The notes under the pieces were generated by a model that was not told the DNA's origin, did not search any database, and saw only the letters and a program-made list of their open reading frames with translations. DNA of 57,495 nucleotides from a virus (lineage: Duplodnaviria > Caudoviricetes). The DNA is taken from IMG/VR virus record IMGVR_UViG_3300034071_002361, positions 1 to 57,495 of that record; one strand, 5' to 3'. Position numbers and translations under genes: made by a program. This document shows positions 1,887 to 56,697 of this stretch, in pieces. The stretch's first letter is position 1, and each line of letters opens with the position of its first letter.

Positions 1887-1942
1887 TGGCGGCCCATCCG
1901 CCAGTTCCAGAATCATAGCACGGCCCAGTGCCGTGTTGTCAA
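1887..1942 (-). promoter_or_regulatory. Early promoter P1 with operator and leader hairpin
   Basis: TTGACA (1942-1937), 19-bp spacer containing CACGGC-N5-GCCGTG, TATGAT (1917-1912), then hairpin TGGCGG-ATGGG-CCGCCA before the SD. Confidence 0.85.
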
Positions 1943-1944
1943 GT

Positions 1945-1973
1945 AAAAGAATGGGGCTGGTTTCCCAGCCCCA
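1945..1973 (-). terminator. Intrinsic terminator
   Basis: Minus strand TGGGGCTGG-GAAA-CCAGCCCCA followed by TTCTTTT. Confidence 0.8.
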
Positions 1974-2047
1974 CCCCGCTTCACCGGAGAACCCATCCCT
2001 GCGTTAGGCGCATGTCGACGCCCCCCTACTCCGGAAACCAGAGGCTG

Positions 2048-2311
2048 CTACAGCAGCCCATCCCGCACAAGGTGGTCGCGCAGGTGCTCGACCAACCCGT
2101 CGTAAACCTTCGGCCGGCTGACGTGCAGCGTCTTGGTCGTGCCGCACGGGCACTCGAGGACAACCGCATGCCACGGCGTGTTGCGGTACTCGCCCGGGGT
2201 GCGGACGGTGTAGTCGCGGATCTGGCTTACGCCGAACCCGAGCTTCTCAGCCGCGTGGAGGATCTCGTACCGGGCGCGGTTCGTTGCGTGGTCTTTGCGC
2301 ATCAGGTCCAT
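2048..2311 (-). CDS. Hypothetical protein (CxC motif)
   Basis: 87-aa ORF in a packed operon. Confidence 0.6.
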   Translation of the reverse strand: MDLMRKDHATNRARYEILHAAEKLGFGVSQIRDYTVRTPGEYRNTPWHAVVLECPCGTTKTLHVSRPKVYDGLVEHLRDHLVRDGLL

Positions 2312-2508
2312 CCGAACTGCCCCCTCTCGATTGCCCGCTTGTGAATCCTGATCTGCTCGAGCACGTACTCAGCCCGCTCTCTGGCAGCCGGGTGGTGCAT
2401 GTTTTCGCTGCCGTTGGCCAGCTTGTTGTTGGACTTGCGGATTGTTCTGCGCACGTAGGATTCGAGCGCCTCGAACAGCTTCAGCGTTTCGTCGTTGGAT
2501 TGGATCAT
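2302..2508 (-). CDS. Hypothetical protein
   Basis: MIQSNDETLKLFEALESY...; ATGA overlap with upstream gene. Confidence 0.6.
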   Translation of the reverse strand: MIQSNDETLKLFEALESYVRRTIRKSNNKLANGSENMHHPAARERAEYVLEQIRIHKRAIERGQFGWT

Positions 2509-2606
2509 CGCCAGCTCCCGGCGCCGAGCGCCACGTAGAAGAACGCCCACGCCAGCGGCGCAAACAGCACGCCGCCGATGATGTACTTCCAGTCGCCACG
2601 CTTCAT
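2505..2606 (-). CDS. Small membrane peptide
   Basis: MKRGDWKYIIGGVLFAPLAWAFFYVALGAGSWR; one TM segment; AAGGAG SD; 4-bp overlaps at both ends. Confidence 0.6.
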   Translation of the reverse strand: MKRGDWKYIIGGVLFAPLAWAFFYVALGAGSWR

Positions 2607-2872
2607 GGCTTCACTCCTTCGGTCGTCGGTGCAAACAGGTCGCGCAGCTCGCCGGTCTTGCGGTCGATGCGCTCGTGGATCATCCCGACCTCGGCGATGA
2701 GGTCGCGGTCGGCAAGCTCCATCAGGCCGGTGAGGTCGATCCCAGCCTTCCGCTGCGCGATCAGCAGCGAGACGGTGACGTCGATCATGGCGGGCGGTGA
2801 CGCCTCGCCAGACGCAGCCAGAGCCGCCCTGTGGCGCTTCGCCAGCGCCATGGCCCATCGCCCCGGGTTCAT
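2603..2872 (-). CDS. Conserved phage hypothetical protein (DUF6874-like)
   Basis: IDLTGLMELAD...GMIHERIDRKTGELRDLFAP pattern. Confidence 0.55.
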   Translation of the reverse strand: MNPGRWAMALAKRHRAALAASGEASPPAMIDVTVSLLIAQRKAGIDLTGLMELADRDLIAEVGMIHERIDRKTGELRDLFAPTTEGVKP

Positions 2873-3075
2873 CGCGTCACCGCCTTGCTGGCCTCGTCGT
2901 GGGCCTTCAGGGCCATGCGGGCGTACAGCACCTCGCCCGGGCTGTGGCGGCCGAGGCCGCCGGGGATGCGCAGATCCTTGCAGGCCTGCATCAGCGAGGC
3001 GTCGCTCGAGCCGCGGTACGGGACCAGCAGGAGCCGCAGCGCGCGGGCCATCATGTCGGCGGGCGTCTCGCTCAT
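2869..3075 (-). CDS. Hypothetical protein
   Basis: 68-aa ORF with ATGA overlaps. Confidence 0.6.
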   Translation of the reverse strand: MSETPADMMARALRLLLVPYRGSSDASLMQACKDLRIPGGLGRHSPGEVLYARMALKAHDEASKAVTR

Positions 3076-3479
3076 GGGATCAGTCCTGCCTTGCGCGCCT
3101 CGGCCAGCCAGCGGTTGGCGTGCTCGGCCTTGCGCTCGTAGCCCTCATACGCCGAGGCTCCCTCGACGTAGTCGCGGATGACGGCAATGTACTCGCCGGT
3201 CATCTCGCGCAGCGCAATCGCGAGCTGCTTCGCCATGGCCTCGTAGTCCACGACCTCAGCAGGCAGGAGATCCAGCGGGTTTTCTCCGAGCTTGTAGGTC
3301 TTGTCGTAGACGCCATCGGCGGCCCAGCTCTCGAGCGTCTCGCGGCCCTCGCTGTCGGTCATGATTCCGCAGACCGAGTAGTGGCTTTCGGGGTTGGTCA
3401 TGTGGTGGATGATCTTGACGCTCAGGCCGCAGCGGGTCTTGTAGCGCATGCCGACGGCATAGGGGGTGGTCTTGGACAT
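3072..3479 (-). CDS. Hypothetical protein
   Basis: 135 aa, AAGGAG SD; YKTRCG..VKII...W.ADG...NPLDL phage-type motif. Confidence 0.7.
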   Translation of the reverse strand: MSKTTPYAVGMRYKTRCGLSVKIIHHMTNPESHYSVCGIMTDSEGRETLESWAADGVYDKTYKLGENPLDLLPAEVVDYEAMAKQLAIALREMTGEYIAVIRDYVEGASAYEGYERKAEHANRWLAEARKAGLIP

Positions 3480-3490
3480 GGTCGTCTCCT

Positions 3491-3859
3491 TCAGAGGGGG
3501 TAGGTGCCGTCTTCGAACGCGTCGATCATCTTCACGATCAGGTCGCGCTTGGTGTGTGCCGTCTCAGCATCGGGCTGCTTATCCCAGTCAGGCACGGTCC
3601 AGACCCAGCCGGGGAAGTTCGGGTTGGCCACCGGGCGAAGGACCGGGTAGCCGGGGTACTCGTCGGCCGCGGCCTCGAGCGCGGCGTCGATGGCGAGGTT
3701 GTTGCCGTCGTAGTCGTCGGCCATCTCGACCAGTCGGTCGATGACCTCGGTCAGGTTCCACGTCTTGAGCATCTCCGAAGGCGCCGGGTAAATCTGGTCC
3801 TCGGCGGGGAGGCTGTTGTAGACCACGTCGAGCATGGAGGCGAGCTTGGGGTTGTTCAT
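3491..3859 (-). CDS. Hypothetical protein
   Basis: 122 aa, GAGGAGG SD. Confidence 0.7.
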   Translation of the reverse strand: MNNPKLASMLDVVYNSLPAEDQIYPAPSEMLKTWNLTEVIDRLVEMADDYDGNNLAIDAALEAAADEYPGYPVLRPVANPNFPGWVWTVPDWDKQPDAETAHTKRDLIVKMIDAFEDGTYPL

Positions 3860-3862
3860 GGC

Positions 3863-4096
3863 TCAGGCCTCCTCGATCTTGACGTTGACCTCGACGGCCT
3901 CCCACTCGTGGTAGGAGTCCTTCACGCCGTGCATGTCGTTGCTTGCGATCTTGATCATCGCAGCGTGAGCCGAGGCAAAGACGCTGAACAGCTCGGCCGT
4001 TTCGATCTCGGTCGTGATGCCGCCGTGCCACGCGACGTACACGTCGTTGTTGAAGTCCTTCCTGATGGCCGTGGCCTTGACTACGTAACGCTTCAT
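3863..4096 (-). CDS. Hypothetical protein, first gene after P2
   Basis: MKRYVVKATAIRK...; AAGGAG SD. Confidence 0.7.
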   Translation of the reverse strand: MKRYVVKATAIRKDFNNDVYVAWHGGITTEIETAELFSVFASAHAAMIKIASNDMHGVKDSYHEWEAVEVNVKIEEA

Positions 4097-4108
4097 CTCG
4101 CTCTCCTT

Positions 4109-4164
4109 GGGGCGGCCCATCCGCCCCGTTGAGAAGATAATAACACGGCCCAGTGCCGTGTCAA
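4109..4164 (-). promoter_or_regulatory. Early promoter P2 with operator and leader hairpin
   Basis: TTGACA (4164-4159), CACGGC-N5-GCCGTG (4144-4160), TATTAT at 16 bp or TATCTT at 19 bp, hairpin GGGGCGG-ATGGG-CCGCCCC. Confidence 0.82.
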
Positions 4165-5258
4165 GAACCCTGATGAATCTGGATCTGGGCTGCCAGCGCC
4201 TTGTAGGCGTCGGTGCGGCTGGCGCCGCGGCTGGCCAGCTCGGCCAGCGCCAGCTTGGCGGCGTCCAGCAGGCTCATGGCGTTGAAGCGGGCGCGCTCCT
4301 CGGCTTCGAGGCGGGCAGCCTCGGCGGCCTCGGCACGGGCACGCTCCTCGGCCTGAGCGCGCTCGGCGGCTTCCCGGGCGGCGCGCTCCTCGGCAGCCTT
4401 GCGCTCCGCCTCCTGCCGGGCCTCGCGCTCAATGCGCTCGCGCTCCGCGGCCTCGGCCTGCTCCCGGGCACGGATGGCCTCCTGCTCGCGCTGGACGCGC
4501 TCCAGCTCGGCGCGCTGCTCGGCCTCGGCCTTCTCGCGCTCAGCCTTGGCCTGCGCCTCCTGAGCATCGCGGAGGGCCTTCTCGGCCTCCTCGATGCGAG
4601 CCCGCGTCTCCTCCTGCTGCCGGCGCAGCTCGGCCTGCTGGCGCTCCAGCTCGGCGCGCTCGGCCGCCATGCGGGCCTGCTCGGCCTCGTGGGCCTCCAT
4701 TTCGTCGGCCATCTTGCGCAGCTCGGCAGCAGACTCCTCGGCCGCATCTGCATAAGCCCGGCGCTCGACGTCGGTGAACTCCGAAGTATCGGCGCCCTGC
4801 GTGGCAGAGATCAGGCTGGCAAGCTGCTCGCGAACAGCGGCCGAGGATCGACCAACCGAAACGGTGACGAACTGGCGGACCCGGCGCATGCAGGCATCGA
4901 CATGGTCGCGGCGGCGCTGCTCGCGCTCAGCCGCCTCGCGCTTCTCGCGCTCCTTGCGCTCCTGCTCGGCCTTGATCTGGGCGTCGATGGGATTCTCCAG
5001 CGCCTCCAGTTCGGCGGTGATGCGCTTGGCCTCGGCGTCGATCAGCTGGCAGCGGCGCAGCGCCGGCTCTTTGATCTCCTTGCGCTTGGCCTCGAGCGCA
5101 ACGCGCGTCTCGCGGATCTCGCGACGGGCCTCGATGGCCTTGCGCATGCCCTCGGTCGTGGCAACGGGGAAGACGGCGTTCTCGTAGCGCTGGCGGAACT
5201 CGGCCAGAGCCTGCGCAGTCGGGGTGTACTCGGTGATCTCGGTGGTGATGCTGGACAT
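4161..5258 (-). CDS. Coiled-coil protein (E/A/R-rich; DUF1351-like N-terminus)
   Basis: RVALEAKRKEIKEP...IDAEAKRITAELEALENPIDAQIK followed by long EAR heptads. Confidence 0.75.
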   Translation of the reverse strand: MSSITTEITEYTPTAQALAEFRQRYENAVFPVATTEGMRKAIEARREIRETRVALEAKRKEIKEPALRRCQLIDAEAKRITAELEALENPIDAQIKAEQERKEREKREAAEREQRRRDHVDACMRRVRQFVTVSVGRSSAAVREQLASLISATQGADTSEFTDVERRAYADAAEESAAELRKMADEMEAHEAEQARMAAERAELERQQAELRRQQEETRARIEEAEKALRDAQEAQAKAEREKAEAEQRAELERVQREQEAIRAREQAEAAERERIEREARQEAERKAAEERAAREAAERAQAEERARAEAAEAARLEAEERARFNAMSLLDAAKLALAELASRGASRTDAYKALAAQIQIHQGS

Positions 5259-5292
5259 GGCGTATTCCTTCGATCGGGTTGGTTGAATTCGG

Positions 5293-5703
5293 TTACTGGA
5301 CTGCGGCCTTCGCCGTGTCGGAGATCTTCTGCACCATCTCGGTGACCTTGGCCATGTCCGGGTGCAGCTTTTTCAGCTCGTTGTCGAGGTGAAAAATCTC
5401 AGTCCTCAGTTGCTCCAGCGCGGTGGCCGACTTGCGCTTTGCTTCCTTGATCTCGAACAGTCGCTCGCCATCCGCGGGGTCCATGGCGACGCGGGGCGAG
5501 GAGTAGCCGAGGCCAGCGCCGTACTGGTCCCCGCGCGCCGTGATGCGGATCTCGCGGCCGGCGTCGGTCAGGATCAGCATGCCGCCGTCCTTGTAGTGCT
5601 TGATCACCGTGCAGCGCACGTTGGCGCCGGTCGGGCGGCGCGACAGCAGGATGGCTTCGGAGCCGATGGCGTAGTTGAGGTTGATCGCGTTCATGGAAAT
5701 CAT
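5293..5703 (-). CDS. Hypothetical protein
   Basis: MISMNAINLNYAIGSE...; AAGGA SD. Confidence 0.65.
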   Translation of the reverse strand: MISMNAINLNYAIGSEAILLSRRPTGANVRCTVIKHYKDGGMLILTDAGREIRITARGDQYGAGLGYSSPRVAMDPADGERLFEIKEAKRKSATALEQLRTEIFHLDNELKKLHPDMAKVTEMVQKISDTAKAAVQ

Positions 5704-5781
5704 GGTGGTGTCCTTGTGTGGGTTGCCGGTGGCGATGGCCACTCGGTGCTGCCCCCGCGGTGCAGGGGCAGGGCCGAGGGG

Positions 5782-6054
5782 TCAGTCGCGAGGAGTGGTC
5801 TTGCCCTTGAGGTCGACGATGTACGCGCGCTCGCGCTCCGACGTCGGCACTCCGACCGGGACGTAGCTCTCGATCTCGTATGGCGCCTCGATGGGAAGCT
5901 CGACCCGCATGCTCACGACGGCAAGTCCGCCGCGCGGCATGTTCGCCTCGATGATTTTCTTGCCTGCCTGACGCGCGACCTTGCGAAGCGCCTCGTCGCG
6001 GGTGGCGGCAACAGAGAAGCCGATGGCGGTGCTGGCGTAGTAGTGGTGCGACAT
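5782..6054 (-). CDS. Hypothetical protein, first gene after P3
   Basis: MSHHYYASTAIGFSVA...; AAGGAG SD. Confidence 0.7.
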   Translation of the reverse strand: MSHHYYASTAIGFSVAATRDEALRKVARQAGKKIIEANMPRGGLAVVSMRVELPIEAPYEIESYVPVGVPTSERERAYIVDLKGKTTPRD

Positions 6055-6069
6055 TTTGCTCTCCTTGAG

Positions 6070-6127
6070 ATGGCGGCCCATCCGCCATTTCCAGTACATC
6101 ATACACGACACCGGGCCGTGTTGTCAA
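6070..6127 (-). promoter_or_regulatory. Early promoter P3 with operator and leader hairpin
   Basis: TTGACA (6127-6122), 18-bp spacer with a one-mismatch operator (CACGAC-N5-GCCGTG on +), TATGAT (6103-6098), hairpin ATGGCGG-ATGGG-CCGCCAT. Confidence 0.85.
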
Positions 6128-6132: not shown

Positions 6133-6160
6133 AAAGAAAACCCCGCCGGAGCGGGGTCTT
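6133..6160 (-). terminator. Intrinsic terminator upstream of P3
   Basis: Minus strand AAGACCCCGC-TCCG-GCGGGGTTTTCTTT. Confidence 0.8.
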
Positions 6161-9269: not shown

Positions 9270-9549
9270 TGCCGCCTCCTTACTGGCACCGCGCCAGTTT
9301 CTGTACGCGATTGTGCGCCCATTTCAGGCCGCAAACCAATAGGCCGAAGCTATCGAGATGGGGGAATTGACCCAAAGCTGTGCATCGAGGTGGCAGCATT
9401 GCCGCGCCCTGTATGTGCCCGGTCGCGCCGGTGCGGGGTAGGGGATTGACCGCCCAGTGCTAGCTGCCCAGCCTCGCAGCGCGACCCGTTCACCTCCAGC
9501 CGGAGCAATCGCCTTGCGCCCGACCGCCGCTCTACCGCAGAATCTCTTC

Positions 9550-9620
9550 AGCCGCCCGTTGTTCGCCTCCTTGAACGCAGCGGCTCCGCCCCGGCCGGGC
9601 CCATCCTGCCGGGGCTTTTT
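9550..9620 (+). ncRNA. Candidate late-leader small RNA (two hairpins, ends at terminator)
   Basis: Possible promoter TTGCGC-18-CAGAAT (9514-9543); hairpin GTTC-GCCTCCTT-GAAC; terminator hairpin with loop containing GGCCCATCC. Confidence 0.4.
9588..9620 (+). terminator. Intrinsic terminator directly upstream of the lysis genes (tR'-like position)
   Basis: GCCCCGGC-N12-GCCGGGGC-TTTTT. Confidence 0.8.
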
Positions 9621-9638
9621 CATGTCTGGGGCACTGGC

Positions 9639-10361
9639 ATGACGCCTCCAGACGGCCTTGAGCTGCTGGCCAAGCTGCCGACGCTCGTCGAGGTCGGCGG
9701 CGCTCTGGCGGCCATCTGGGGTGGCTGGGTGGCATGGCTCCGCTGGGTCTGGCCGAAGTTCAAGGGCACCGGGCGCGCGCTGGCCGGGCTCATGGAGCTG
9801 GGCACCCGGGCCGGCGAGCTGACCGACGGTCTGGGCCGCATGTCCGCCATCGAGGAGTCGCTGGCCGCGGTCAAGCACGAGGTGCTGCCCAATGGCGGCG
9901 GCAGCCTCCGCGACGCGGTAGCGCGCACCGAGGCCAGCGTCAGCCTGTTCCTGAGCCAACAGCGAGCCCGGGACGACGCCGAGGACGAGGTCGTCCGCAT
10001 CGACATCGACGAGACGGGACGCGTCACATGGGTGGCCGCTGCCCTGACCCGCTGGACCGAGCGCACGAGCGACGAGCTGCGCGGCCATGGCTGGCTGAGC
10101 TTCATCCACCCGGACGAGCGCGAGGACGTCGCCGAGGAATACACGCGCTGCATCCGCCACAAGCGCCAGTTCGACTCAGCCTTCCGCCTGATCGATCGCA
10201 GTGGCGAGTCGACGATCGTGCGCATGTCCACGCTGCCGGTGACCATCGTCGTCGGTGGCCGCGAGGAGACGCGCTGGACCGCGATCATGAAGCGCCGAAG
10301 CAACATCCCCGAAGCCTTGGCCGCCCCTGAGCGAGCCCCTGTCCAGAGCCGAGCCCCATGA
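9639..10361 (+). CDS. Membrane protein with C-terminal PAS domain, in the holin position
   Basis: N-terminal TM, PNGGGSLRDAV motif, PAS signature GWLSFIHPDERE...F.SAFRLIDRSGE. Confidence 0.75.
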   Translation: MTPPDGLELLAKLPTLVEVGGALAAIWGGWVAWLRWVWPKFKGTGRALAGLMELGTRAGELTDGLGRMSAIEESLAAVKHEVLPNGGGSLRDAVARTEASVSLFLSQQRARDDAEDEVVRIDIDETGRVTWVAAALTRWTERTSDELRGHGWLSFIHPDEREDVAEEYTRCIRHKRQFDSAFRLIDRSGESTIVRMSTLPVTIVVGGREETRWTAIMKRRSNIPEALAAPERAPVQSRAP

Positions 10362-12167: not shown

Positions 12168-12559
12168 ACAGCCGCGACGCCTCCGTCCCCGCTCACGACG
12201 AGCAGACCCTCGAACAGCTCCTGATCGACAAGGGCCTGATCGACAAGGGCCTGATCGACAAGGGCCTGATCGCCCCGCGCATCACGCCCGAGCGCATCGA
12301 CGCCCTCATCGTCTCCGAGCAGTACCACGTCTTCGACGGTGCTTTCGGTGAAGGCCCGCGCTTCACGGCCTGCCTGCTGACTCTGTCCAACGGCTACCAA
12401 GTGCTCGGGGAGTCGTCGTGCGTTGACCACCGCAACTTCGATGCCGACGTCGGCCGCTCCATCGCCCGCAAGAACGCCCGCGACAAGATCTGGGCGCTGG
12501 AGGGCTACCTGCTGCGTGAGCAGCTCGCCAGCAACGTCGGCGCGGCGGTGGGCGCTTAA
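12164..12559 (+). CDS. Gp49-family phage protein
   Basis: KGLIAPRITPERID...TACLLTLSNGY.VLGESSCVD..NFDADVGR.IAR.NA.DKIWALEGYLL. Confidence 0.85.
   Translation: MNSRDASVPAHDEQTLEQLLIDKGLIDKGLIDKGLIAPRITPERIDALIVSEQYHVFDGAFGEGPRFTACLLTLSNGYQVLGESSCVDHRNFDADVGRSIARKNARDKIWALEGYLLREQLASNVGAAVGA
12220..12272 (+). repeat. 15-bp perfect tandem repeat (3.5 copies) encoding LIDKG x3
   Basis: cctgatcgacaaggg repeated. Confidence 0.95.
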
Positions 12560-47100: not shown

Positions 47101-48516
47101 AACGACGGCGTCGAGAATGCTCTGCGCATCGCGACCTACGCTCACCTCCGCAAGGACAAGGGCTGGTCGAAGCAGCGTGCAGCGACCTACGCGAAGGAGA
47201 TGACGGTCAACTTCAACCGCAAGGGCATGGCTGGCTCCTTCATAAACTCGCTGTACCTGTTCTTCAATGCGGCCGTGCAGGGCTCGCGTCGCACACTGCA
47301 GCTCATGAACCACCCGAAGGTCAGGGTCATGCTCGGCGGTCTGGCCATGGGCCAGTTCGCCTTTGCCATGGCGCTCGGCATGCAGACGTTCGGCGATGAC
47401 GACGACGAGACGCTGTGGGAGAAGATCCCCGACCACGCCAAGCGCCGCGGCTTCATCATCCCGCTGGGCTTCGACGACGACGGCACCGCCCGCTACATCT
47501 CGATCCCGATGCCGTTCGGCTTCAACGTGTTCCCGGCGACTGGCGGCTACCTCGCCAACTACCTGAGCCCGAACTGGCGCGGCCGCATGGGCGACTCGCC
47601 GATCAAGCACGGCACCGAGGCGATGGCATACATGACCTCGACTGCGATCGACGCAGTGAGCCCTGTCCCGGTCGGCGAGGAGGGCTGGTTCCAGCCGACG
47701 CTGGTCCGCCTCTACACCAACCTCGAGCGCAACAAGGACGACCTCGGCCGGCGCATTCGCCCGAGCGAGGACTTCAGTGAGTTCGACCTGCCGCGCGCCG
47801 CGCTTTACACGCCGGGCACGCCGGAGTCGCTGGTGCTTATCGCCAAGGGCCTGAACCGCCTCGGCGGCGGCGATGACCTGACCCCGCCGAAGCTTGCGCC
47901 AAGCTTCACCGACGTCAGCCCGAACGACCTCGAGTACCTGCTTGGCCAGTTCACTGGCGGCCCGGGAACGGTGCTGCTGCAGTCGACGCGTGCAGCGACG
48001 CGCGAGCTGGCGATCGGCGACATGGCCAGCTTCGACATCCCGGTCGTGCGTGCGGTGTCCGGTGGCGTGCGCCCTGAGCAGCGCGAGGCTGCGCGCTTCT
48101 ACGACAACAAGGACACCTACGAGCGCAACCTCGAGCGCATCCAAGTGGCCTATGCCGAAGGTGGTATCGAGGAGATGCGTCGCGTGCAGGCCGAGCTTGG
48201 CCCGGCCTACGCGGGCATCGATCCGAAGATTCGCAAGACGACCACGGAGAACGGCGAAGCCGGCACTGCGTTCGTCAACGCCAGCGGCCAGCCTCAGCTG
48301 GCGCCGCTGGAGGGCAGCGTGCTTGAGGAGTACCGCGCCGCGGAGAGGGATCTGCGCGAGATCTCAGCGGCAATGCGCGCGGTCTACAACAACCGCGACC
48401 TCGGCCCTATCGAGCGCCAGCGCCAGCTCGTCGAGCTTCAGCGCAAGCGCGAGGATGCGACCAAGGAGTTCAACCGCCTGATGTCCCGGGCGAATGTCGC
48501 AAGGTCGGGCGGCTAG
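38155..48516 (+). CDS. Giant polyvalent ejection-type protein: GGDEF, HExxxH metallopeptidase, glycosylase-like, HDxxGH, two ART-like and LPD38-like C-terminal domains
   Basis: 3453-aa ORF with GAGG SD; motifs RTGGDEV, HELAGH..EEALAE, GWY/LAVTS/TMDLW/QAALW, HDAFGH, IHYS/LYFY, LYHG/TSAS/SEAIV, NP.F...N..RD, TVNFNRKG, LYLFFNAAVQG, IPMPFG. Confidence 0.85.
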   Translation: MRRIQVPSGRIFEFPTDATDDQINEFLSGLDQRTLSEERSTARAAGDIGVDFAAGVAGMVPTAIDAVQVDEVPRAVTAEGRARALMGETAGDIVGAIQSVSPAGDIEKRTIRATEMAAGGLRGAGETLQEVGAMPGRPVEQALTATGIPGAALIGRNVDKIGGFLQRAGDFIGGDIAEARATENAQRVAAGQKTLEQESQQQVTSRAANAVSGFVDDQANNLRSDYANAISAEMGKAIDGGVGTTAEFIADSPGEALSAVLGGSAAYLIPGLASARLAKIAGASEGLATAAAVQGTSAVVSAQGAEGARDLVMGMSEEQLLSVPEYMAERDRGLDHEQAQLAIANKAYDAAAGAGFALNATTGAVAQRLGLAPVEQLMARGGRIPGVGRVAGAVGSAIREAPGEALQGAGEALGQNLGGVAAGTMEGRDAFEGVGANALLEAAAGAGIGGITGFVAPQAKAAEVTSQPTDQTNPAAQAARDVAEIYSAARQAEQERPSAPPATAPVDAAPEQPAPATASPASLMGGFAAATPLDQNAKPADELEAQLQQAGAAPVIRPAAEPEGMAALEAFQRQQAAQNPPASTSAPLGETPQHDGAVTPGAQSRPRPRDLPAVVPSPKRAKVPLRELKAAGQTQLPPIRPAVPVRAPVVAPPPDVAAAVAAQPDRISFSDNDVVARAKLEQTFLGFGIEPELARTMAQNDTVPSGAIRDSVTGGFDGRADGVKSGTLQRAIDHVDQTGEDSFFVSADISNLGGLNKFHNDVADEANRDFRGLTDVLLEELRATGADVVPMRTGGDEVGYVVVNASQEAVNAATERARSRAVEYARSRGFDQIPHTKASRTDKGVTFHTGVARIQPGLTVEEIAREADLGVNASKNAASPTKETSTNERREATGEAGPLASGGQAGRAAGGDAAAAGGTAGEVGSTAQRADGQRPGAAPQPDGGSPGQVAGGTAPASAGARIDPFVESTVRALGLSPDAVAIVDAPSDLPAGVSSRGLDGKTEGIYDPKTGKVYLFRGALVSPSRAVWVTLHELAGHKGLRALLPQEQFARTMQEAGTNPTIRGIAMAMMAEARAEAEAGAAGARPATDPTLFIEEALAEYTAAWFTGDIDALMDRYGDAVMFSRQQTAEIDSRIEQERKAAEGVVKRAIAAVKRALFNTPDVGTRLRMSDAEVVGLISNAYKSLRAGQKQAAEGATMQSRVPLSSKWMTEDFAKARKQLGLSVDGENKVRSVGEALDAYVAKRNGRIEPKDRSPEAMTKIAAAMADEVMVQIGDTAQQTGSGVGWYSVNYPNAVRRLASRFPELDSDSEAAARGMVNADSARNLFTMILAVTSNGEKVRQNLKMATEMFAAFRDGASLRDAMPGTRRAEALENNIEVIDQLISRFGMDGIRQHLLSEMTVKEINAELRKRGEKPSSDYTADMTLPRSALYFGAKLGAFYANLAGSTGYLTMDLWWSRSFNRYRANMLPAPTDSGMAALRGLLGLPDSASMEQLIEAATPYWKAYKDRGYKDGSDIEKKANTFIKAAVLELNEAPTSATERKFMVETAIEAQRRLRRRGVDLTLADIQAALWYYEKRLYDGLGVRGRDDIGYEEAINEQAQGDRPDGPAARGGGSGGDVVEPGRSGAEADGARGRRAGRGLARAGRDARGQDAGAEPQPALQSRLPGAPVVRGFDGPDPRLVAVAEQYARDNGIQLRRQAEYVKVDPERAKRIADAYEAMEHAPNDPRVRAAYRSLIDQTLAQYRALEAAGYRFWFIDLESEAGQQYTSSPWNAMRDIRANQRMGVFPTAEGFGSGASDLDVADNPMLEDTGIRWPFGGPDGEAKPVLANDLFRAVHDAFGHGIEGSGFRADGEENAWQAHVRLFTGDAVAAITSETRGQNSWLNFGPFGERNRTASAEETVFADQKTGLMPEWTWLEGRAGDMQEDANEQEQADTRAAADGQPGVRRDGAPGSAGGPLQSRSFPEDAPSFRQRKQQKDAVSANGIHYSGTAGLTALDGKFAGAGSAGNERRRFGTGQYGARAEPGDTGRRLYFYVQEGDTPPRKEDVVAGNNRYAVELTNLYDYEADPRGLREDAGANMDYLEELVNDAGFDGLLLPPLAGIEGKIAILHGLKKKVPIISAPLQSRSKSAIGDEWGASHSGSSAITTASMQIMAIPGREMEQWRSRESVDRLERMAVTALSEIAADREGSEERLYHGFEDVDGREFPIGRVVKLGLTSASGDLSSSASYGIRLDEADQRGTPTAYEFPVGTPMSAYGVWSEADAREFGHRYSEAIVAGEYEVTGVREERASNWRRTPVRVVSLKPLRVFDPQAMQWTPVGDAPLQSRQTQDARAAAAALRTRKSQLARELTTNLTTAEQVKAWTQRARLLIGEVSTSRDFAEEIVEAKRMLTPERRDALQGDREALKRYDAVRDMIAIAEQGMSAVRSKQAQANRLLDKVERRTSTMSLAEREALVDELTGALDEAERAYVAAKRIADWRAANDYKVIKAHKKRSDMLDFLAAEGYQQGSFLWASNGIKDLAAKAKRYFRRLLQDKMIDMRDVQDEIERQLGRSIDDLQNVYRMENLMHGKTADRIESFRVKLVEPLKAAVKATGLSQDAVDKYLWAKHAKERNAKIRAIRPGVDDGSGMTDAEADAQLASYTPEQLASLEAVSRRVEAVRRASLQTLVEAGQLTAEAAQAIQSSYSHYVPLRGKDGEGEERVGGRGTGQGISAGSPGVQRALGRKTPPKNILAELVGDGERAIVQAGKAEVGRSLLRLVLSYPNPGLWSLEPVVLEPKFSEATGEVYLSIGTPDDAETVIVKHNGKPYRVQIKHPRLVEALKNTGVTGTEWAVKYIGWVNRWFSAVFTRFNPGFVPVNLARDLLQGASGLYAELGAKSAGVVLANWRAAFAASYRDSRGQRGDSTIADDKKAMVDWAREFAEQGGKTGYTAMEDSDTLQQKIEDSMLPIADVVRKHKGNPIPVLAQVFERSDTLQWIEDVNDGVENALRIATYAHLRKDKGWSKQRAATYAKEMTVNFNRKGMAGSFINSLYLFFNAAVQGSRRTLQLMNHPKVRVMLGGLAMGQFAFAMALGMQTFGDDDDETLWEKIPDHAKRRGFIIPLGFDDDGTARYISIPMPFGFNVFPATGGYLANYLSPNWRGRMGDSPIKHGTEAMAYMTSTAIDAVSPVPVGEEGWFQPTLVRLYTNLERNKDDLGRRIRPSEDFSEFDLPRAALYTPGTPESLVLIAKGLNRLGGGDDLTPPKLAPSFTDVSPNDLEYLLGQFTGGPGTVLLQSTRAATRELAIGDMASFDIPVVRAVSGGVRPEQREAARFYDNKDTYERNLERIQVAYAEGGIEEMRRVQAELGPAYAGIDPKIRKTTTENGEAGTAFVNASGQPQLAPLEGSVLEEYRAAERDLREISAAMRAVYNNRDLGPIERQRQLVELQRKREDATKEFNRLMSRANVARSGG
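40814..41002 (+). CDS. Nested +1-frame small ORF after the GGDEF domain (62 aa)
   Basis: AAGGAG SD 10 nt before ATG; MSDEKRLERLGLSHLADKPDELQAETQRQLAELRAK is helical and protein-like. Confidence 0.55.
   Translation: MSDEKRLERLGLSHLADKPDELQAETQRQLAELRAKSDRLRSERMASAPAPRRSPMAAAPAK
42944..43165 (+). CDS. Nested +1-frame small ORF after the glycosylase-like domain (73 aa)
   Basis: GAGGAGG SD 6 nt before ATG; MNKPKVIDPTDPLHEAVDRAVMSSNPADRAQKLMALAG. Confidence 0.6.
   Translation: MNKPKVIDPTDPLHEAVDRAVMSSNPADRAQKLMALAGVEPAEDSPEQGAMRVAKMRAQNRSLLSRAASPARR
43940..44098 (+). CDS. Nested +1-frame small ORF after the HDxxGH domain (52 aa)
   Basis: AGGAGG SD 6 nt before ATG; MNKSKPTPAPPPMDSPEFDAMVRRAVQADL. 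Confidence 0.55.
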   Translation: MNKSKPTPAPPPMDSPEFDAMVRRAVQADLSSRAASPKTPRPSGSASSKKTR

Positions 48517-50405: not shown

Positions 50406-51260
50406 TTAGCCTCGGTCGGAATAGGCCCAGCCCGGGAGGGTCAGGACTTCGATGTTGTCGGAGTAGGCGGGCCAGCGGCCGGTGCGCATGCACTCGGCCA
50501 GCTTGTCCATGGAGCGGTGCAGGATCTGGAAGCCGCGCTCTTCAGCGGCCGCGTCGATGTGATAGACGCCGACGGCGTGCGGCTTGGGCTTCTCGACCGG
50601 GAGCAGCAGGTAGTTGCGCAGCGGCCGGTCGTTCGCGGAAAAGCCGCTGCTGTAGTGGCAGTGCTGGCGGTGGTAGCCGTAGCGCGCAACGCTGCGACCG
50701 AACTCGATGGGGCTCGCATCCTCGGTGGACTTCAGGTCCATCGCGAACTGCAGCTCCTCGTGCCACCAGTCGGCGCGAGCCTTGCACAGCAGGCCGGTGC
50801 GCTTGTCGATCCAGCGCAGCGTGACCTCGGGCCTGCCACCTTCGATGATCAGGCGCGCGGTCTTGTGTCGGAGCACGGCGTCGCGCATGGCCATGGCCAG
50901 CTTCTTCTCGCCTTCCTCGACGACAGACGTTCCCGGGGGCAGAGACTTCAGCCACTCGTCGCGGATCGCCCGGTTGGTGCTCGACTGCATCTTGCCGAAG
51001 TACGGCATCTCGACGTAGTGCTCGTTGAACTTGTCCGGCTCGAGGATCGCAGAGTGAACGATGCGGCCGACACGAAAGTGCTGCTGCTCCTTGAACTCTT
51101 CGTCCGGGGTCTTCGGCTTGTTGCGGTCCTGCACCCACTGGAAGTAGTGGGCGGGTGTCCGCTCGTCGATGACCTTGAGGCCTGAGTTGTTGGCTTCGCC
51201 GAGCACGGTGCGGTGGTAATCCGCTGCCGGCTCGTCGAGAAAGATCCCGATGCGGGACAT
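50406..51260 (-). CDS. RecE/exonuclease VIII-like PD-(D/E)XK nuclease (DUF3799-like)
   Basis: YH...SGLK...PAHY...G...H.AILEP; E....W.D..TG..CKARADW...DLKST; YGYH.Q...Y. Confidence 0.88.
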   Translation of the reverse strand: MSRIGIFLDEPAADYHRTVLGEANNSGLKVIDERTPAHYFQWVQDRNKPKTPDEEFKEQQHFRVGRIVHSAILEPDKFNEHYVEMPYFGKMQSSTNRAIRDEWLKSLPPGTSVVEEGEKKLAMAMRDAVLRHKTARLIIEGGRPEVTLRWIDKRTGLLCKARADWWHEELQFAMDLKSTEDASPIEFGRSVARYGYHRQHCHYSSGFSANDRPLRNYLLLPVEKPKPHAVGVYHIDAAAEERGFQILHRSMDKLAECMRTGRWPAYSDNIEVLTLPGWAYSDRG

Positions 51261-51281
51261 GACGCCTCCTGATATTGCTGC

Positions 51282-51331
51282 GCTGGCCCATCCAGCCAAT
51301 GCAGAATACGCGCGGTGTACAGAAACTTCAA
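51282..51331 (-). promoter_or_regulatory. Promoter for the recombination module with a fifth leader hairpin
   Basis: TTGAAG-17-TATTCT; hairpin GCTGG-ATGGG-CCAGC; no CACGGC operator. Confidence 0.6.
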
Positions 51332-51342: not shown

Positions 51343-51603
51343 ATGAAGCTGCGCGAGTACATCGAGAAGGCATCACTGGATGGCGAGGGCTTGGGCCTGA
51401 CCAACCCGGTGCTGAAGCGGATTGCGTACCGGGCTCGCTGCAGCGAGCACATGGTGTATGCCATTGCGCGCGGGGTTCGGTTCGCCGGCATCGACCTCGC
51501 CGAGAAGATCAGCCGAGCTACCGAACGGCACGTGACCCCACTGGAGCTGATGAATGACAACCCCCGAAAGCGCGGACCAGCGCCTGCAAATCGCACTGAC
51601 TGA
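51343..51603 (+). CDS. Cro-like HTH transcriptional regulator
   Basis: GAGGAG SD; MKLREYI...IA....CS...VY.IA.G.R.....LA.KI..AT...VT..EL. Confidence 0.7.
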   Translation: MKLREYIEKASLDGEGLGLTNPVLKRIAYRARCSEHMVYAIARGVRFAGIDLAEKISRATERHVTPLELMNDNPRKRGPAPANRTD

Positions 51604-52012
51604 CGCGGGTGCGAAGTACCCGACCTACGCCACAGGCGGCAGCGCCGGCCTCGACCTGTTCGCCAACGAGGACGTGACCGTCCCGGCCTTCGACCGCAAG
51701 CTGGTCCACACGGGCAACATCTTCCGCATCCCGCGCGGCTGGGCTGGTCTGGTGTGCAGTCGCAGCGGGCTCGCACTGAAGAGCGGGATCGAGGTGCTCA
51801 ATGCCCCCGGCATCATCGATAGCGACTACCGCGGCGAGGTTTGCGTGATCCTGTTCAACACCACTCGTCATCCGTTCGAGGTTCGTCGTGGTGACCGCAT
51901 CGCACAGATGGTCGTCACCCCGCACCTGTCGCCGTACTTCGATCGCGTCCTGACGGTCGACATGGACGAGACGATCCGCGGCGCCGGCGGCTTCGGGAGC
52001 ACCGGTCGATGA
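51554..52012 (+). CDS. dut: dUTPase
   Basis: AGLDL, SRSGLA, PGIIDSDYRGE, GDRIAQ, RGAGGFGSTG (all five motifs). Confidence 0.97.
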   Translation: MTTPESADQRLQIALTDAGAKYPTYATGGSAGLDLFANEDVTVPAFDRKLVHTGNIFRIPRGWAGLVCSRSGLALKSGIEVLNAPGIIDSDYRGEVCVILFNTTRHPFEVRRGDRIAQMVVTPHLSPYFDRVLTVDMDETIRGAGGFGSTGR

Positions 52013-52311
52013 TCTCTCTCCCGGTCATCTTCGGCCGGGCCGGAGAGGCGACCTGCCCGGACTACTACACGCAGGTCGCCGAACGCGCGGCGTCAACAGC
52101 GGAGGGGCGCAGCGGCAGGCTGTTCATCCGCATCGATGCAGCCGGCCGGTTCGTTGTCGACGACCATGCTGGTGAGCCGCGCTACTTGGTCATGGCGTTC
52201 GACAACGCATGCGACCCCGACCTGATCGCCTCGGAGATCATCGAGGCGGTCAAGTCGAGGGGCTTGGATTTTGGAAGCTTCAGGGGCAGGCCGAGAAGGG
52301 TGAAGCCATGA
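52009..52311 (+). CDS. Hypothetical protein
   Basis: ATGA overlap with dut. Confidence 0.55.
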   Translation: MISLPVIFGRAGEATCPDYYTQVAERAASTAEGRSGRLFIRIDAAGRFVVDDHAGEPRYLVMAFDNACDPDLIASEIIEAVKSRGLDFGSFRGRPRRVKP

Positions 52312-54534: not shown

Positions 54535-54692
54535 TGTCCGTGATCCTTCAAGATTTCATGCTTCGCAAGCTCAAGCGCGCCGATTGCTTCGGTCACGCTG
54601 AGTCCTGCGCCGTTCTCGTACACCGCCGCCTTGATCGCATCGACAAGGCGCTGCAAGTCGTGGCGTGCGCTTCCAAGTGCAACAACGCTCAC
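54531..54692 (-). CDS. Small hypothetical protein
   Basis: LVDAIKAAVYE...LSV.EAIGALELAK. Confidence 0.55.
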   Translation of the reverse strand: MSVVALGSARHDLQRLVDAIKAAVYENGAGLSVTEAIGALELAKHEILKDHGQ

Positions 54693-55069
54693 TTGCCCAC
54701 CCCCAGCGATGCGCGGATGCGCTGCCATGCGGCCTTGCGCTTCGGATTCCCATTGCAGTCCATCCACTCGCCCACCAGTGCCACATCCTCCGCGCTGGCC
54801 TGCGGCTGCGGGGTGGCGTAGAACTTGGTGCCAACGGGCGGCGGTGATTTATTCAGCCACTCGATTTGCACCAGCGCGAACTCGCTAGCTGCCGATTGCC
54901 ACGGCCCAAGGTCAGCGGCCACGACTTTCGCCACCGGCTCGGCCTGCGGCGCAGCAAGCATGGCCTCGACAATGCCTCGGCACTCTTCCGCCCAGTACCG
55001 CGAACGCTGGAACGTAGACAGGTCAAAGTCGCGGCGCATGTAGGCCACGCGCTTTTGCAGATCAGTCAC
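54689..55069 (-). CDS. Hypothetical protein (Eaa/DUF-type mosaic)
   Basis: AMLAAPQAEPVA...PPVGTKFYATPQP. Confidence 0.6.
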   Translation of the reverse strand: MTDLQKRVAYMRRDFDLSTFQRSRYWAEECRGIVEAMLAAPQAEPVAKVVAADLGPWQSAASEFALVQIEWLNKSPPPVGTKFYATPQPQASAEDVALVGEWMDCNGNPKRKAAWQRIRASLGVGK

Positions 55070-55451
55070 GGCACTCCTCCGTTGCGCGGATCACGCGCTG
55101 CTTGCGGCCGCTCTTGCCGAGCACGCGGTCGCCGGTGTCGATGATCAGGCCCTTGCGCAGCAGCGCGCTGAAGCGTGCCGTCAGGGTCGGGTAGGTGATC
55201 CACGGCAGCGCCTCGAGCAGGGCGTCCTGCGTCGTGCCCGCCTTGCCTGCGGCGCGGATCGCGACGAGCACCTTCTCTTCGACGCTCGAGGTGTCCACCG
55301 AGTAGGCGGCCTGCACGCTCGTGTCGCCAGCGTCAGCCCGGTGCAGCAGCGGCGCGTCGGTGCCGAGCACGACGCCGGTCAGCGCATCGATGGCGCGCTT
55401 GTTGTTCGCGGTACTGGCGATGATCTCGCCGATGGTTTTTCCCAGTGACAT
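55062..55451 (-). CDS. Winged-helix DNA-binding protein
   Basis: DTSVQAA...VL.AI...G.T...L.....T.TARFS.L..KGLI.DTG.R....GRKQ.V. Confidence 0.7.
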   Translation of the reverse strand: MSLGKTIGEIIASTANNKRAIDALTGVVLGTDAPLLHRADAGDTSVQAAYSVDTSSVEEKVLVAIRAAGKAGTTQDALLEALPWITYPTLTARFSALLRKGLIIDTGDRVLGKSGRKQRVIRATEECRD

Positions 55452-55471
55452 GTTCGCCTCCTTGTGGCGGA

Positions 55472-55723
55472 TTACTTGCGGCGCTTGCGCGGCAGCGGAT
55501 CTTCGCCGACCGCGTGCAGGACCAGAGCCCAGCTCGCTGCCGACGGGTACTTGTGCGACAGCGTTTTCTCGATCGCCTCCCATCGCTGCGCCGTTCGCTC
55601 GTTGACCATGGCCATCTCGGCGAGCTGCGCCTGAGTCAGGTCGTGGCGCTTGCGCAGCTTGCGCACATCCTCAGGCGACGGCGGCTGGTAGCTCTTCAGA
55701 ATGCTGACGGTCTTGTTGCTCAT
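55472..55723 (-). CDS. XRE-family HTH regulator
   Basis: PSPEDVRKLRKRHDLTQAQLAEM..VN.RT.QRWEA. Confidence 0.8.
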   Translation of the reverse strand: MSNKTVSILKSYQPPSPEDVRKLRKRHDLTQAQLAEMAMVNERTAQRWEAIEKTLSHKYPSAASWALVLHAVGEDPLPRKRRK

Positions 55724-55908
55724 GCGTTGTCGTCCAGTTTGTCGAGCAGGTCGTACCAGCGCTGCTTGCTGGTGAGATAGGAGGTGTCGAGGCCGGAGTG
55801 CCCTGACTCGACGAGGATGTCGCGGAAGCGCTTGGCATCCGACTCGGTGAAGGTGCCGCCCATCAGGTCGCGAAGCTGGGCGGGGTTCATGCTGCGGGAG
55901 ATGATCAT
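55720..55908 (-). CDS. Small hypothetical protein
   Basis: MIISRSMNPAQLRDLMG...; ATGA overlap with the XRE gene. Confidence 0.55.
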   Translation of the reverse strand: MIISRSMNPAQLRDLMGGTFTESDAKRFRDILVESGHSGLDTSYLTSKQRWYDLLDKLDDNA

Positions 55909-55910
55909 GC

Positions 55911-56153
55911 TCAGATCTCGTTGTAGTGTTTGAGGTAGCGGGGTTCGAGCCAAGCTGGGCAGTCGTGAATTCGCGACGCACGACGGTCGGTCTTTTTCGG
56001 CTGCCACTTGATGAACAGGCACCTGTTCCCCGGGAGGGTTGGCGGGCGCTCCTGAATAACCCCAACCCGACCCTTCAGTACGCGCTGCACATCGACCTTG
56101 AAATCCTCGATGTCGCGAATGACGACCTTGTCGCCGGGCTTGAACTCGCTCAC
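55911..56153 (-). CDS. Small SH3-like (KOW-type) protein
   Basis: EFKPGDKVVI...GRVGVI. Confidence 0.55.
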   Translation of the reverse strand: MSEFKPGDKVVIRDIEDFKVDVQRVLKGRVGVIQERPPTLPGNRCLFIKWQPKKTDRRASRIHDCPAWLEPRYLKHYNEI

Positions 56154-56440
56154 TGGTTGGCCTCGATGACGGCTCTGTCGTCTTTGACGGTGTACTTGAT
56201 CCCGACAGCGTCGAGCGCGTTGGTGATCTTCTTGAGGTTCTTCGCCCGCATCTCCGGCGTTTCCCTGATGTAGTGGTTGCCGGTGACCCAGTACGCACAG
56301 ACGTTTCCGTCCATGGCGCGGTAGACGCAGACGCCGCTGGTGTAGTCGCGCCACCCGCGGATGCGCGTAGAGCTTGAGGTGCTGGCCGGGACTCGCGCCC
56401 GGCGCATCGCGCCGCTGACTTTCTGCACGGTGATTGCCAT
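56150..56440 (-). CDS. Hypothetical protein
   Basis: MAITVQKVSGAMRRA...; AAGGAG SD. Confidence 0.6.
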   Translation of the reverse strand: MAITVQKVSGAMRRARVPASTSSSTRIRGWRDYTSGVCVYRAMDGNVCAYWVTGNHYIRETPEMRAKNLKKITNALDAVGIKYTVKDDRAVIEANQ

Positions 56441-56441
56441 C

Positions 56442-56630
56442 TCAGGACTCCTTGCCGACGCGGACGCGCAGGCCCTCGTTGATGCCGACGTACATGTGCG
56501 CATCCGGAGCATCCGACTTGGCGATCTTCTCGGCCGCATCGACAAGGAGGTTGGCAGCTGCGGTGTTGGTTTCGTAGATGACGGCGGCAAGCTTGCGGGC
56601 GCCGCCGGTCGTGGTCTTGATGTATTCCAT
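56442..56630 (-). CDS. Hypothetical protein, first gene after P4
   Basis: MEYIKTTTGG...; AAGGAG SD. Confidence 0.65.
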   Translation of the reverse strand: MEYIKTTTGGARKLAAVIYETNTAAANLLVDAAEKIAKSDAPDAHMYVGINEGLRVRVGKES

Positions 56631-56641
56631 GGGATCTCCTT

Positions 56642-56697
56642 CAGCGGCCCATCCGCTGGTGGCAGAAGCATAACACGGCACTAGGCCGTGCTGTCAA
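56642..56697 (-). promoter_or_regulatory. Early promoter P4 with operator and leader hairpin
   Basis: TTGACA (56697-56692), 19-bp spacer with CACGGC-N5-GCCGTG, TATGCT (56672-56667), hairpin CAGCGG-ATGGG-CCGCTG. Confidence 0.85.

Follow-up and report, generated by a model that had tools for sequence, protein, structure and literature searches.

What does a short hairpin with one and the same loop do when it stands, time after time, between the promoter and the ribosome-binding site of different phage genes? The IMG/VR virus record IMGVR_UViG_3300034071_002361, which was analysed over its whole length of 57,495 bp (hereafter the window), raises this question. A sequence-only reading of the window had noted five minus-strand hairpins with an ATGGG loop ahead of early genes and had proposed that they are a structured RNA signal, perhaps a boxB/nut-like antitermination site, a CsrA/RsmA-type GGAUG site or the target of a small RNA (sRNA). 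We find that the hairpin is real, RNA-like and absent from the RNA catalogues that we searched, and, judging from its sequence context, it is most probably the 5'-terminal leader stem-loop of a mobile early-expression cassette. The minus-strand operons are called early here because of their gene content, which is the sole basis for the term.

Five leader hairpins in a repeated cassette

All five hairpins (m1 to m5, Table 1) were recovered at the places given for them, both by inspection of the sequence and by a scan for ATGGG loops closed by at least four perfect pairs, which returned exactly these five, all on the minus strand. The exact 9-mer at their core, GGATGGGCC, occurs six times in the window, again always on the minus strand, compared with a mean of 0.83 and a maximum of 5 in 100 dinucleotide shuffles, none of which reached six copies. 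When one mismatch is allowed the count is 15, which is fewer than the 23.95 of the average shuffle, so the excess is confined to the exact word. With a covariance model the five copies scored 23.7-30.1 bits, and the next matches in the window at 15.9, 15.4 (the sixth copy of the 9-mer, discussed below) and 15.1 bits.

The reported placement between the -10 box and the Shine-Dalgarno sequence (SD) also holds by sequence for the five copies. For m1 to m5 in turn, pairing begins 8, 9, 9, 6 and 8 nt after the -10 box, an AGGAG-type SD follows 0-12 nt after each stem, and the ATG lies 5-8 nt further on. With transcription starting at the usual 6-8 nt from the -10 box, these gaps would place the stem at about +1 to +3. 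Upstream of m1, m2, m3 and m5 there is a common module, consisting of TTGACA, a 17-bp palindrome (CACGGC-N5-GYCGTG) and TATGAT, TATTAT or TATGCT, from which the promoter of m4 differs. The promoters of m2 and m3 were flagged by a consensus scan, with 11/12 hexamer matches, and those of m1, m4 and m5 by separate scoring. Because the palindrome sits in the spacer that separates the -35 box from the -10 box in four early promoters, it looks like a repressor operator, and we treat it as a candidate for one. The same palindrome is also found, with one mismatch, at 40604-40620, inside a giant gene. A search of IMG/VR for the operator and the hairpin as a combined pattern gave a single match (L126), in coding sequence and without the hairpin.

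Two other accounts of the core were tried and rejected. A coding role for the loop ATG is contradicted by its frame, which agrees with that of the downstream gene in m2 and m3 only, is out of register in m1 and m4, and in m5 meets a stop after three codons. A sigma54 promoter of the -24/-12 type would need a GG-N10-GC spacing that fits m1 and m3 only.

Table 1. Positions of the cassette elements and of the hairpins on the opposite strand of the window.
Feature	Position	Strand	Details
Leader hairpin m1	1887..1903	-	TGGCGG-ATGGG-CCGCCA, 6 bp; 28.5 bits
Leader hairpin m2	4109..4127	-	GGGGCGG-ATGGG-CCGCCCC, 7 bp; 30.1 bits; syntenic copies in L344, L345
Leader hairpin m3	6070..6088	-	ATGGCGG-ATGGG-CCGCCAT, 7 bp; 28.3 bits
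Leader hairpin m4	51282..51296	-	GCTGG-ATGGG-CCAGC, 5 bp; 23.7 bits; precedes RecE-like exonuclease gene
Leader hairpin m5	56642..56658	-	CAGCGG-ATGGG-CCGCTG, 6 bp; 26.9 bits
Promoter-like site m1	1912..1942	-	TTGACA (1942-1937), N19, TATGAT (1917-1912); palindrome CACGGC-N5-GCCGTG (1935-1919)
Promoter-like site m2	4137..4164	-	TTGACA, 16-nt spacer, TATTAT; spacer palindrome 4144-4160
Promoter-like site m3	6098..6127	-	TTGACA, 18-nt spacer, TATGAT; spacer palindrome 6104-6120
Promoter-like site m4	51303..51331	-	TTGAAG-N17-TATTCT, no palindrome; divergent from plus-strand gene 51343-51603
Promoter-like site m5	56667..56697	-	TTGACA, 19-nt spacer, TATGCT; spacer palindrome 56674-56690
Terminator-like hairpin and T run	1948..1977	-	just upstream of m1 promoter
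Terminator-like hairpin and T run	6140..6152	-	just upstream of m3 promoter; conserved in L345
SD AGGAGA and ATG	1873..1886	-	100-aa ORFan 1573-1875 (behind m1)
SD AAGGAGAG and ATG	4094..4108	-	77-aa ORFan 3863-4096 (behind m2)
SD AAGGAGAG and ATG	6052..6066	-	90-aa ORFan 5782-6054 (behind m3)
SD AGGAGG and ATG	51258..51270	-	exonuclease gene 50406-51260 (behind m4)
SD AAGGAGA and ATG	56628..56641	-	62-aa ORFan 56442-56630 (behind m5)
Sixth copy, intrinsic-terminator-like hairpin	9588..9620	+	GCCCCGGC-cg-GG-CCCAT-CC-t-GCCGGGGC then TTTTT; hairpin 9588-9615
Small hairpin, CCTCCT in loop	9561..9576	+	complementary to early-leader SDs; 12 nt upstream of terminator hairpin

Stem covariation and exchange of the cassettes

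Within the window, the third to seventh pairs from the loop vary and pairing is kept. From the window and the scanned loci described below, 23 sites with at least four perfect pairs, an SD and a start codon were collected, and 22 of these hairpins, from the window and 14 other viral contigs, were aligned, with one coding-like site (L102) left out. In this alignment 73.2% of cells pair, compared with 23.6-44.8% when the 3' partner is slid, and its covariation score was reached by none of 500 shuffles. The three pairs beyond the four inner ones that the selection forces are paired in 13, 18 and 16 of the 22 rows. The most telling single observation is the syntenic copy in L344. This metagenome contig and another, L345, encode a protein that is 83% (L344) and 77% (L345) identical to that of 4161-5258. 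The order in L345 is terminator, TTGACA, the palindrome CGTCC..GGACG, TATAGT, 9 nt, GGGGCGG-ATGGG-CCGCCCC and an SD, and at the m2 position L344 has GGGGCG-ATGGG-CGCCAC, in which the second pair is changed on both sides and the loop is kept. The alignment and this two-sided change bear out the covarying stem, and we are confident that the hairpin is a selected RNA structure.

The core that the sequence-only reading had called invariant is indeed so inside the window, but not in relatives: because GG/CC has become CG/CG in L344 around an unchanged loop, it is G-AUGGG-C and not GGAUG that is conserved. Two further variants that the search patterns did not force, each ahead of an SD, are GTACGC-ATGGG-GCGTAC in L071 and GCCGGC-AATGGG-GCCGGC in the phage record G004 (12486-12503). 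This bears directly on the proposed CsrA/RsmA site, in which a GGA in the loop would act together with the GGA of the SD. All six window copies have GGAUG and the second GGA is present in the SD, but the GG of the first is paired with CC rather than exposed, GGA is missing from the syntenic copy of L344, from the AAUGGG variant of G004 and from hairpins of the GCG-ATGGG-CGC type, the loop being kept in L344, and the invariant UGGGC part would be left unexplained. We therefore set this proposal aside as extremely improbable.

Comparison with the two contigs also bears on the behaviour of the cassettes. Homology to L344 and L345 continues through the m2 cassette at 90% identity and ends 3 nt past its ATG; it covers the m3 terminator and -35 box and not the m3 operator, it skips the window gene 5293-5742, and the ORFans behind the cassettes are different genes. 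In a relative found in metagenome run X3, 1888-1945 (the promoter and most of the m1 hairpin) is replaced by 490 other letters, and the DNA contigs of run X2 gave one identical piece over m2. A look for RNA runs that contain the phage gave none. On these sequence comparisons the cassettes appear to act as joints of modular exchange. The palindrome that L344 and L345 have at the same place is a different one (CGTCC..GGACG), which would be in keeping with distinct immunity types carried by cassettes that are homologous in other respects.

Recurrence in other phages

The sequence-only reading had proposed building a covariance model and searching phage genomes with it, and when this was done the hairpin was found to recur in unrelated phages. 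A search of whole records with the model gave three copies of 28.8-30.9 bits in G006 (43.85 kb, with terminal repeats) and one copy each in G007, G005, G008 and G003; G004 has two copies in addition to its AATGGG variant. The copies in other phages each stand behind a promoter-like site of their own (for example TTGCAC-N17-TAGCTT or TTGTGC-N18-TAGAGT), mostly 7-9 nt from its -10 box, and the genes downstream of them are mutually unrelated. Of 12 cases with a promoter score of at least 6.5/12, nine have 6-9 nt between -10 box and stem; in the other three, G007, L055 and L222, this distance is 12 or 14 nt.

Pattern scans of IMG/VR with controls point in the same direction. CGGATGGGCCG followed by an SD in the sense orientation was found at 70 loci (56 unique sites, 34 of them with a start codon after), with a stem of at least 5 bp at 12 sites and a longest stem of 10 bp. 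The reverse-complement control gave 50 loci and 35 unique sites, 12 with a start codon, and among these one stem of at least 5 bp and none of 6 bp or more (longest 5 bp); the reversed-loop control gave nine loci and eight unique sites, two with a start codon, and again one stem of at least 5 bp (longest 5 bp). Long stems are thus confined to the sense orientation and to the real loop, which favours an RNA element. Two other scans were less informative. The first, for GGATGGGCC followed by an SD, returned at least 119 loci, and the 12 sites with a stem of at least 4 bp among the matches listed are about the level of chance extension. The scan for GCGATGGGCGC followed by an SD returned at least 120 loci, mostly Ala-Met-Gly-Ala coding sequence, with just the forced three pairs at 69 of 103 unique sites among the matches listed, and is therefore unusable for counting. 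It did contain real-looking leaders (L393, L386, L480, L387 and L402). Those of the viral contigs L393, L386 and L480 are two-hairpin leaders with a conserved GGGTCGTAGAAGG linker and an apical hairpin of the GCG-ATGGG-CGC type, and they precede homologous small proteins.

The controls and the covariation also bear on whether the element could work at the DNA level, as a joint for recombination, as a cruciform, or through a protein that binds the duplex at +1 to +20. The breaks of homology at the cassettes would suit such an element, and the stem-loops of the PeSL cassettes of T4-type phages have been proposed as recombination targets (PMC2839356). However, the orientation of the hairpin is fixed relative to the SD, the reverse-complement control has no long stems, and compensated stem variation speaks for pairing rather than for half-site recognition, which leaves the DNA-level explanation highly improbable. 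Covariation, strand specificity relative to the SD and recurrence behind unrelated promoters all support the structured RNA signal that had been proposed.

A protein common to the phages that carry the hairpin was looked for by all-against-all BLASTP of 1201 open reading frames (ORFs) from eight motif-bearing records, the window among them. No family is present in all eight, the widest spans five of them, and none includes the window, so that a phage-encoded partner common to all is unlikely at BLASTP sensitivity. Comparison of the window proteins with the motif-bearing loci revealed no common neighbour, and 33 distant IMG/VR loci with relatives of the window's 365-aa protein have no ATGGG hairpin of 5 bp or more. 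The BLASTP result weighs on the idea that the hairpin is an operator at which an RNA-binding protein, of phage or host, controls, negatively or positively, the translation of the gene that opens each early operon, in the manner of coat-protein or RegA-type translational operators. Such sites are usually built in just this way, with a covarying stem next to the SD and a loop that is asymmetric and invariant, and an A stands 5' of the 4-bp core in 9/17 non-window hairpins, unpaired in seven. Nevertheless, a bulged A is lacking from the stems of the window, none of the early proteins was recognised as RNA-binding, and the eight records have no protein family in common; we consider a protein operator of this kind unlikely.

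Possible roles of the leader hairpin

We tentatively favour, as one possibility with rather less than an even chance, a cis-acting role in which the hairpin is a 5' leader stem-loop that stabilises early mRNAs and insulates their translation. A short, G+C-rich stem with a G-AUGGG-C loop would form the extreme 5' end of five early mRNAs and abut the SD. The hairpin stands last among the modules of a repeated cassette (terminator, promoter of sigma70 type carrying the 17-bp palindromic operator, hairpin, SD and ATG) that heads small variable genes in a PeSL-like manner, and transcription would start 0-3 nt before the stem. Since mRNA decay through RppH and RNase E depends on the 5' end, a base-paired end would shield the message from it, and it would also prevent upstream sequence from pairing with the SD. 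A host component, as a partner not specific to one phage, would read the invariant loop, and in the window phage an antisense loop in the late-leader RNA (see below) could be an additional partner. The distance between -10 box and stem is 6-9 nt in the window and in most of the other phages, the start being predicted from promoter sequence.

Several points weigh against it. The placement at the 5' end derives from consensus promoters, two of which have 19-nt spacers. Generic 5' protection would work with any loop, so that only a partner could account for the invariant one, and no loop-reading partner was identified. Stabiliser stem-loops at the 5' ends of bacterial and phage mRNAs, such as that of the ompA leader, work by structure alone and are not known to have a loop sequence conserved across genes, in contrast to the window hairpins. 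Folding z-scores of the five leaders (-0.39, -2.97, -1.29, +0.35 and -1.10 for m1 to m5) are unremarkable. Since the search patterns behind the cross-phage set already contained the core, the invariance of the loop across phages is partly a product of construction, and the loop conservation that was not forced comes down to the variants of L344, L071 and G004. When hairpins of at least 5 bp were collected from the gathered loci without a fixed core, ATGGG loops numbered 10, which lies within the 1-31 counted for permuted loops.

The same features allow a judgement on processive antitermination. Lambda boxB has a 5-bp stem and a purine-rich, GNRA-like pentaloop, with boxA a few nt upstream, and is recognised by an arginine-rich, N-like antiterminator. 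Like a nut site, the window hairpins are small (a stem of 5-7 bp and a pentaloop) and would lie close to the promoter in the RNA of early operons, and terminator-like hairpins, which such a system would let the polymerase pass, stand between units, upstream of m1 and m3. However, the loop is AUGGG in all copies and not of the GNRA-like purine type, no boxA-like word (in the form known to us) occurs on either strand of the window, the 0-3 nt predicted between start and stem would leave no room for one, every unit is served by a separate promoter, and the hairpin stands right beside the SD. An N-like protein was not found either: the early proteins gave no family match and have no obvious arginine-rich N-terminal motif, although such proteins are small and divergent enough to be missed. 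The boxB/nut-like site of the sequence-only reading is thus unsupported, and we regard it as quite improbable.

The sixth copy and a putative antisense loop

The sixth copy of GGATGGGCC (9598-9606, minus strand) is the apex of a longer hairpin. On the plus strand this apex, GGCCCATCC, is the exact 9-nt antisense of the five hairpin cores, and the hairpin and its T run have the shape of an intrinsic terminator 19 nt ahead of the first late-strand ATG (9639), within the divergent gap (9270-9638) between the first minus-strand gene, with its ATG at 9269, and the first plus-strand gene. On the minus strand the sixth copy has no module-like promoter before it and no start codon after its SD-like word. 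Since the terminator lies 19 nt before the late genes, the late promoter should be upstream of it and late transcription must read through it, an arrangement that would imply read-through or antitermination control of the late operon. In the predicted plus-strand fold CCCAU is apical and CCUCCU is held in the small loop of the preceding hairpin, an order that suits antiparallel pairing with a leader loop and its SD. The proposal that the hairpins are the target of an sRNA at 9550-9620 would need a change of strand: the plus strand there is a terminator hairpin with an antisense loop, whereas the minus strand carries the motif in the same sense. Of the three mechanisms put forward it is the most interesting. 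Two other features of the gap are a pair of GGGGA(A)TTGACC repeats upstream of the late terminator (9362-9372 and 9441-9451) and a 6-codon mini-ORF (9622-9642) that overlaps the ATG at 9639.

In a kissing-loop version of this mechanism, the terminated late leader RNA would pair its GG-CCCAU-CC and CCUCCU with the loops and SDs of the five early leaders, and early translation or stability would be shut off jointly once the late promoter fires. The phage P1/P7 c4 RNA and CopA-CopT of plasmid R1 act through exposed loops that pair with a target hairpin and ribosome-binding region. The putative antisense here differs from these in being a terminated late leader with five unlinked targets and a 9-nt match, and the Rfam C4 family had no match in the window. 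Several observations speak for the kissing-loop mechanism. The sixth exact 9-mer is apical in a hairpin with a T5 run only on the plus strand, before the late ATG, and lacks module promoter and start codon on the minus strand; both complementary words are in loops, in the 5'-3' order needed. Hairpins of 11-12 bp whose loop is CCCAU occur on the strand of the modules in G006 (one) and G004 (two), and one of this set lies 18 nt after a stop codon. Among 167 hairpins with stems of at least 8 bp in eight records, five have the loop in either orientation, four of which are not modules, and non-overlapping permuted loops give 0-3.

On the other hand, the window phage provides a single case, and because G004 and G006 are mutually related there are only two lineages in all; G001, G003, G005, G007 and G008 have no hairpin with the complementary loop. 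One extra 9-mer copy by chance is not rare, as the shuffle mean given above indicates, no plus-strand consensus promoter was found at 9270-9580, and a ranking of all 5' regions by duplex energy did not set the five leaders apart. SSSSCCCATSSSS gave 25 matches in five records, and the hairpin-capable ones were the modules themselves only. We consider the kissing-loop shut-off doubtful, though worth keeping in view. We have similar doubts about its wider form, in which G-AUGGG-C hairpins would be an undescribed, widespread motif of phage 5' untranslated regions (UTRs), and of scattered bacterial leaders, that acts by loop-loop contact, here as an RNA-only early-to-late switch worked by a trans-acting antisense RNA; on that account the CCCAU-loop terminator hairpins on the same transcripts of G004 and G006 would be the partner.

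If the element is real at the RNA level, unrelated high-G+C phages begin their early mRNAs with a portable leader element that takes up no more than about 17-25 nt, and its loop sequence must be read by something. It would then be a candidate family for RNA catalogues and a handle on how early expression is coordinated in uncultured phages, and those who design expression systems for G+C-rich hosts could use it as a ready-made part. Should the link to the late leader be true, it would represent a new coupling of late transcription to early shut-off, and if the loop is irrelevant, an ordinary cassette of promoter, hairpin and SD of the PeSL kind remains.

Comparison with described elements

The closest counterpart that we found is the PeSL cassette of T4-type phages, which is described as a strong sigma70-like early promoter and a G+C-rich stem-loop with an SD and start codon at its 3' end; it heads small ORFan genes and is a place where recombination occurs, and its subclasses have the stem-loop either between the -10 box and the SD or in the space from the -35 to the -10 box (PMC2839356). 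The window cassettes likewise combine a sigma70-like promoter, an adjacent stem-loop and an SD with ATG, repeated before small variable genes, and their edges are homology breaks in relatives of the window, as described for PeSL (PMC2839356). In contrast, PeSL stem-loops are presented as terminators or attenuators and, as far as that description goes, have no conserved loop, whereas the window loop is invariant and the hairpin would lie in the transcript (PMC2839356). The window also has separate terminators upstream, none of its five hairpins has a T run 3' of it, and its gene content is not T4-like: this phage has 67% G+C and a giant LPD38-domain protein, and is unrelated to the T4-type PeSL phages.

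A second family of repeated leader elements is SAS/ESAS of the Cluster K mycobacteriophages. SAS is a short, asymmetric element found in one orientation at the SD of many non-structural genes, and ESAS add an inverted repeat just upstream, for which the authors consider an RNA or protein partner of host or phage (PMC3203893). Sequence and host group differ from those of the window, the SAS as described includes the SD itself, and the pattern of conservation is reversed, since ESAS arms are conserved and their spacer is not, whereas in the window the loop is conserved and the arms vary (PMC3203893).

Catalogues, literature and bacterial occurrences

At gathering score, Rfam 15 gave no match in the window; an E-value search of seven loci yielded only two terminator-like, sub-threshold matches, and 12 bacterial loci had no match at the hairpin. 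Full-text literature searches for the 9-mer led to primer or eukaryotic contexts among the matches listed, and those on AUGGG pentaloops and on conserved stem-loops of early promoters found no description of this element.

Bacterial genome contigs were scanned with CCGGATGGGCCGG followed by an SD, which gave at least 120 loci; since many of these are one conserved Streptomyces coding stretch, no statistic is possible. Among the matches listed, the apex of helix H2 of the rpsF (S6) leader reads CCGG-AUGGG-CCGG in six Oceanospirillales-type genomes and one other, and the hairpin also precedes an rplJ gene and an L25 gene. The rpsF leaders (L232, L234, L239, L288, L313, L332 and L317; other ribosomal protein loci are L295 and L249) carry an A that is left unpaired on the 5' side of the CCGG stem, and immediately ahead of their SD stands a CCCAU with which the loop could pair. 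In the published accounts of the S6:S18-binding leader, the H2 loop is variable and not contacted by protein (PMC3895269), and the defining features are a CC bulge between H1 and H2 and a helix H1 that pairs with the SD (PMC3895269, PMC4647458). The phage hairpins differ in having perfect stems, no CC bulge and no SD-sequestering H1; an outer helix reaching the SD is predicted in only some window copies and is not kept in relatives. The E. coli rpsF leader has no AUGGG hairpin. With the H2 loop variable and uncontacted and the E. coli leader lacking the hairpin, S6:S18 mimicry was rejected, as it also was on the missing CC bulge and outer SD helix of the window hairpins.

Pairing of the loop with ribosomal RNA, or mimicry of it, was likewise rejected on the example of one gammaproteobacterial genome: neither its 16S (1539 nt) nor its 23S (2887 nt) contains CCCAT or a G-ATGGG-C hairpin, so the loop cannot pair there through a perfect 5-mer. 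Six alphaproteobacterial genomes among the matches listed have the hairpin in the 5' UTR of an IS110-family transposase. In these contigs (L255, L292, L293, L296, L319 and L333) the UTR is conserved and structured, with an arm CCCGG-ATGGG-CCGGG just before the SD, and the structure may be part of the element's non-coding RNA. One contig binned as Stenotrophomonas (L268) has a six-tRNA array and, directly downstream of it, a promoter-like site, a CCGG-ATGGG-CCGG hairpin and an SD, and is probably a phage.

Genome context

The record is rated 100% complete by CheckV and classed as linear. The minus-strand gene 2-544 runs off its left end and an open frame (57252-57494, minus strand) enters at the right end; the record is probably a circular permutation cut inside a gene. 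Its G+C content is 64-70% along the length, and no tRNA was found in it. The nearest terminase match is only 42% identical, there is no close named relative, and no more than 5% of an 8-kb query is covered by DNA matches to named phages. Between 9639 and 48516 the plus strand encodes an endolysin, tail-fibre proteins, a portal, a major head protein and a terminase, and the minus strand (9269 to 1, and 57495 to about 49175) encodes small ORFans, a RecE-like PDDEXK exonuclease and a helicase-loader-like protein.

The giant gene (38155-48516, plus strand) is an ORF of 3453 aa. Its product has a 'large polyvalent protein' domain (LPD38) and a stretch with weak likeness to GGDEF, below threshold; an RNA polymerase domain was not detected in it. 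A plus-strand island of three genes (51343-52311) lies within the early region, divergent from cassette m4, and encodes an 86-aa basic protein, a dUTPase (phrog_135, 4.2e-52) and a 100-aa ORFan; by eye the basic protein has the look of a small Cro-type regulator, and it gave no family match. Finally, read depth peaks at 4270-4546, within the Ala/Glu/Lys-rich 365-aa gene, in all four metagenome runs, which is probably due to cross-mapping of a low-complexity or widely shared segment.

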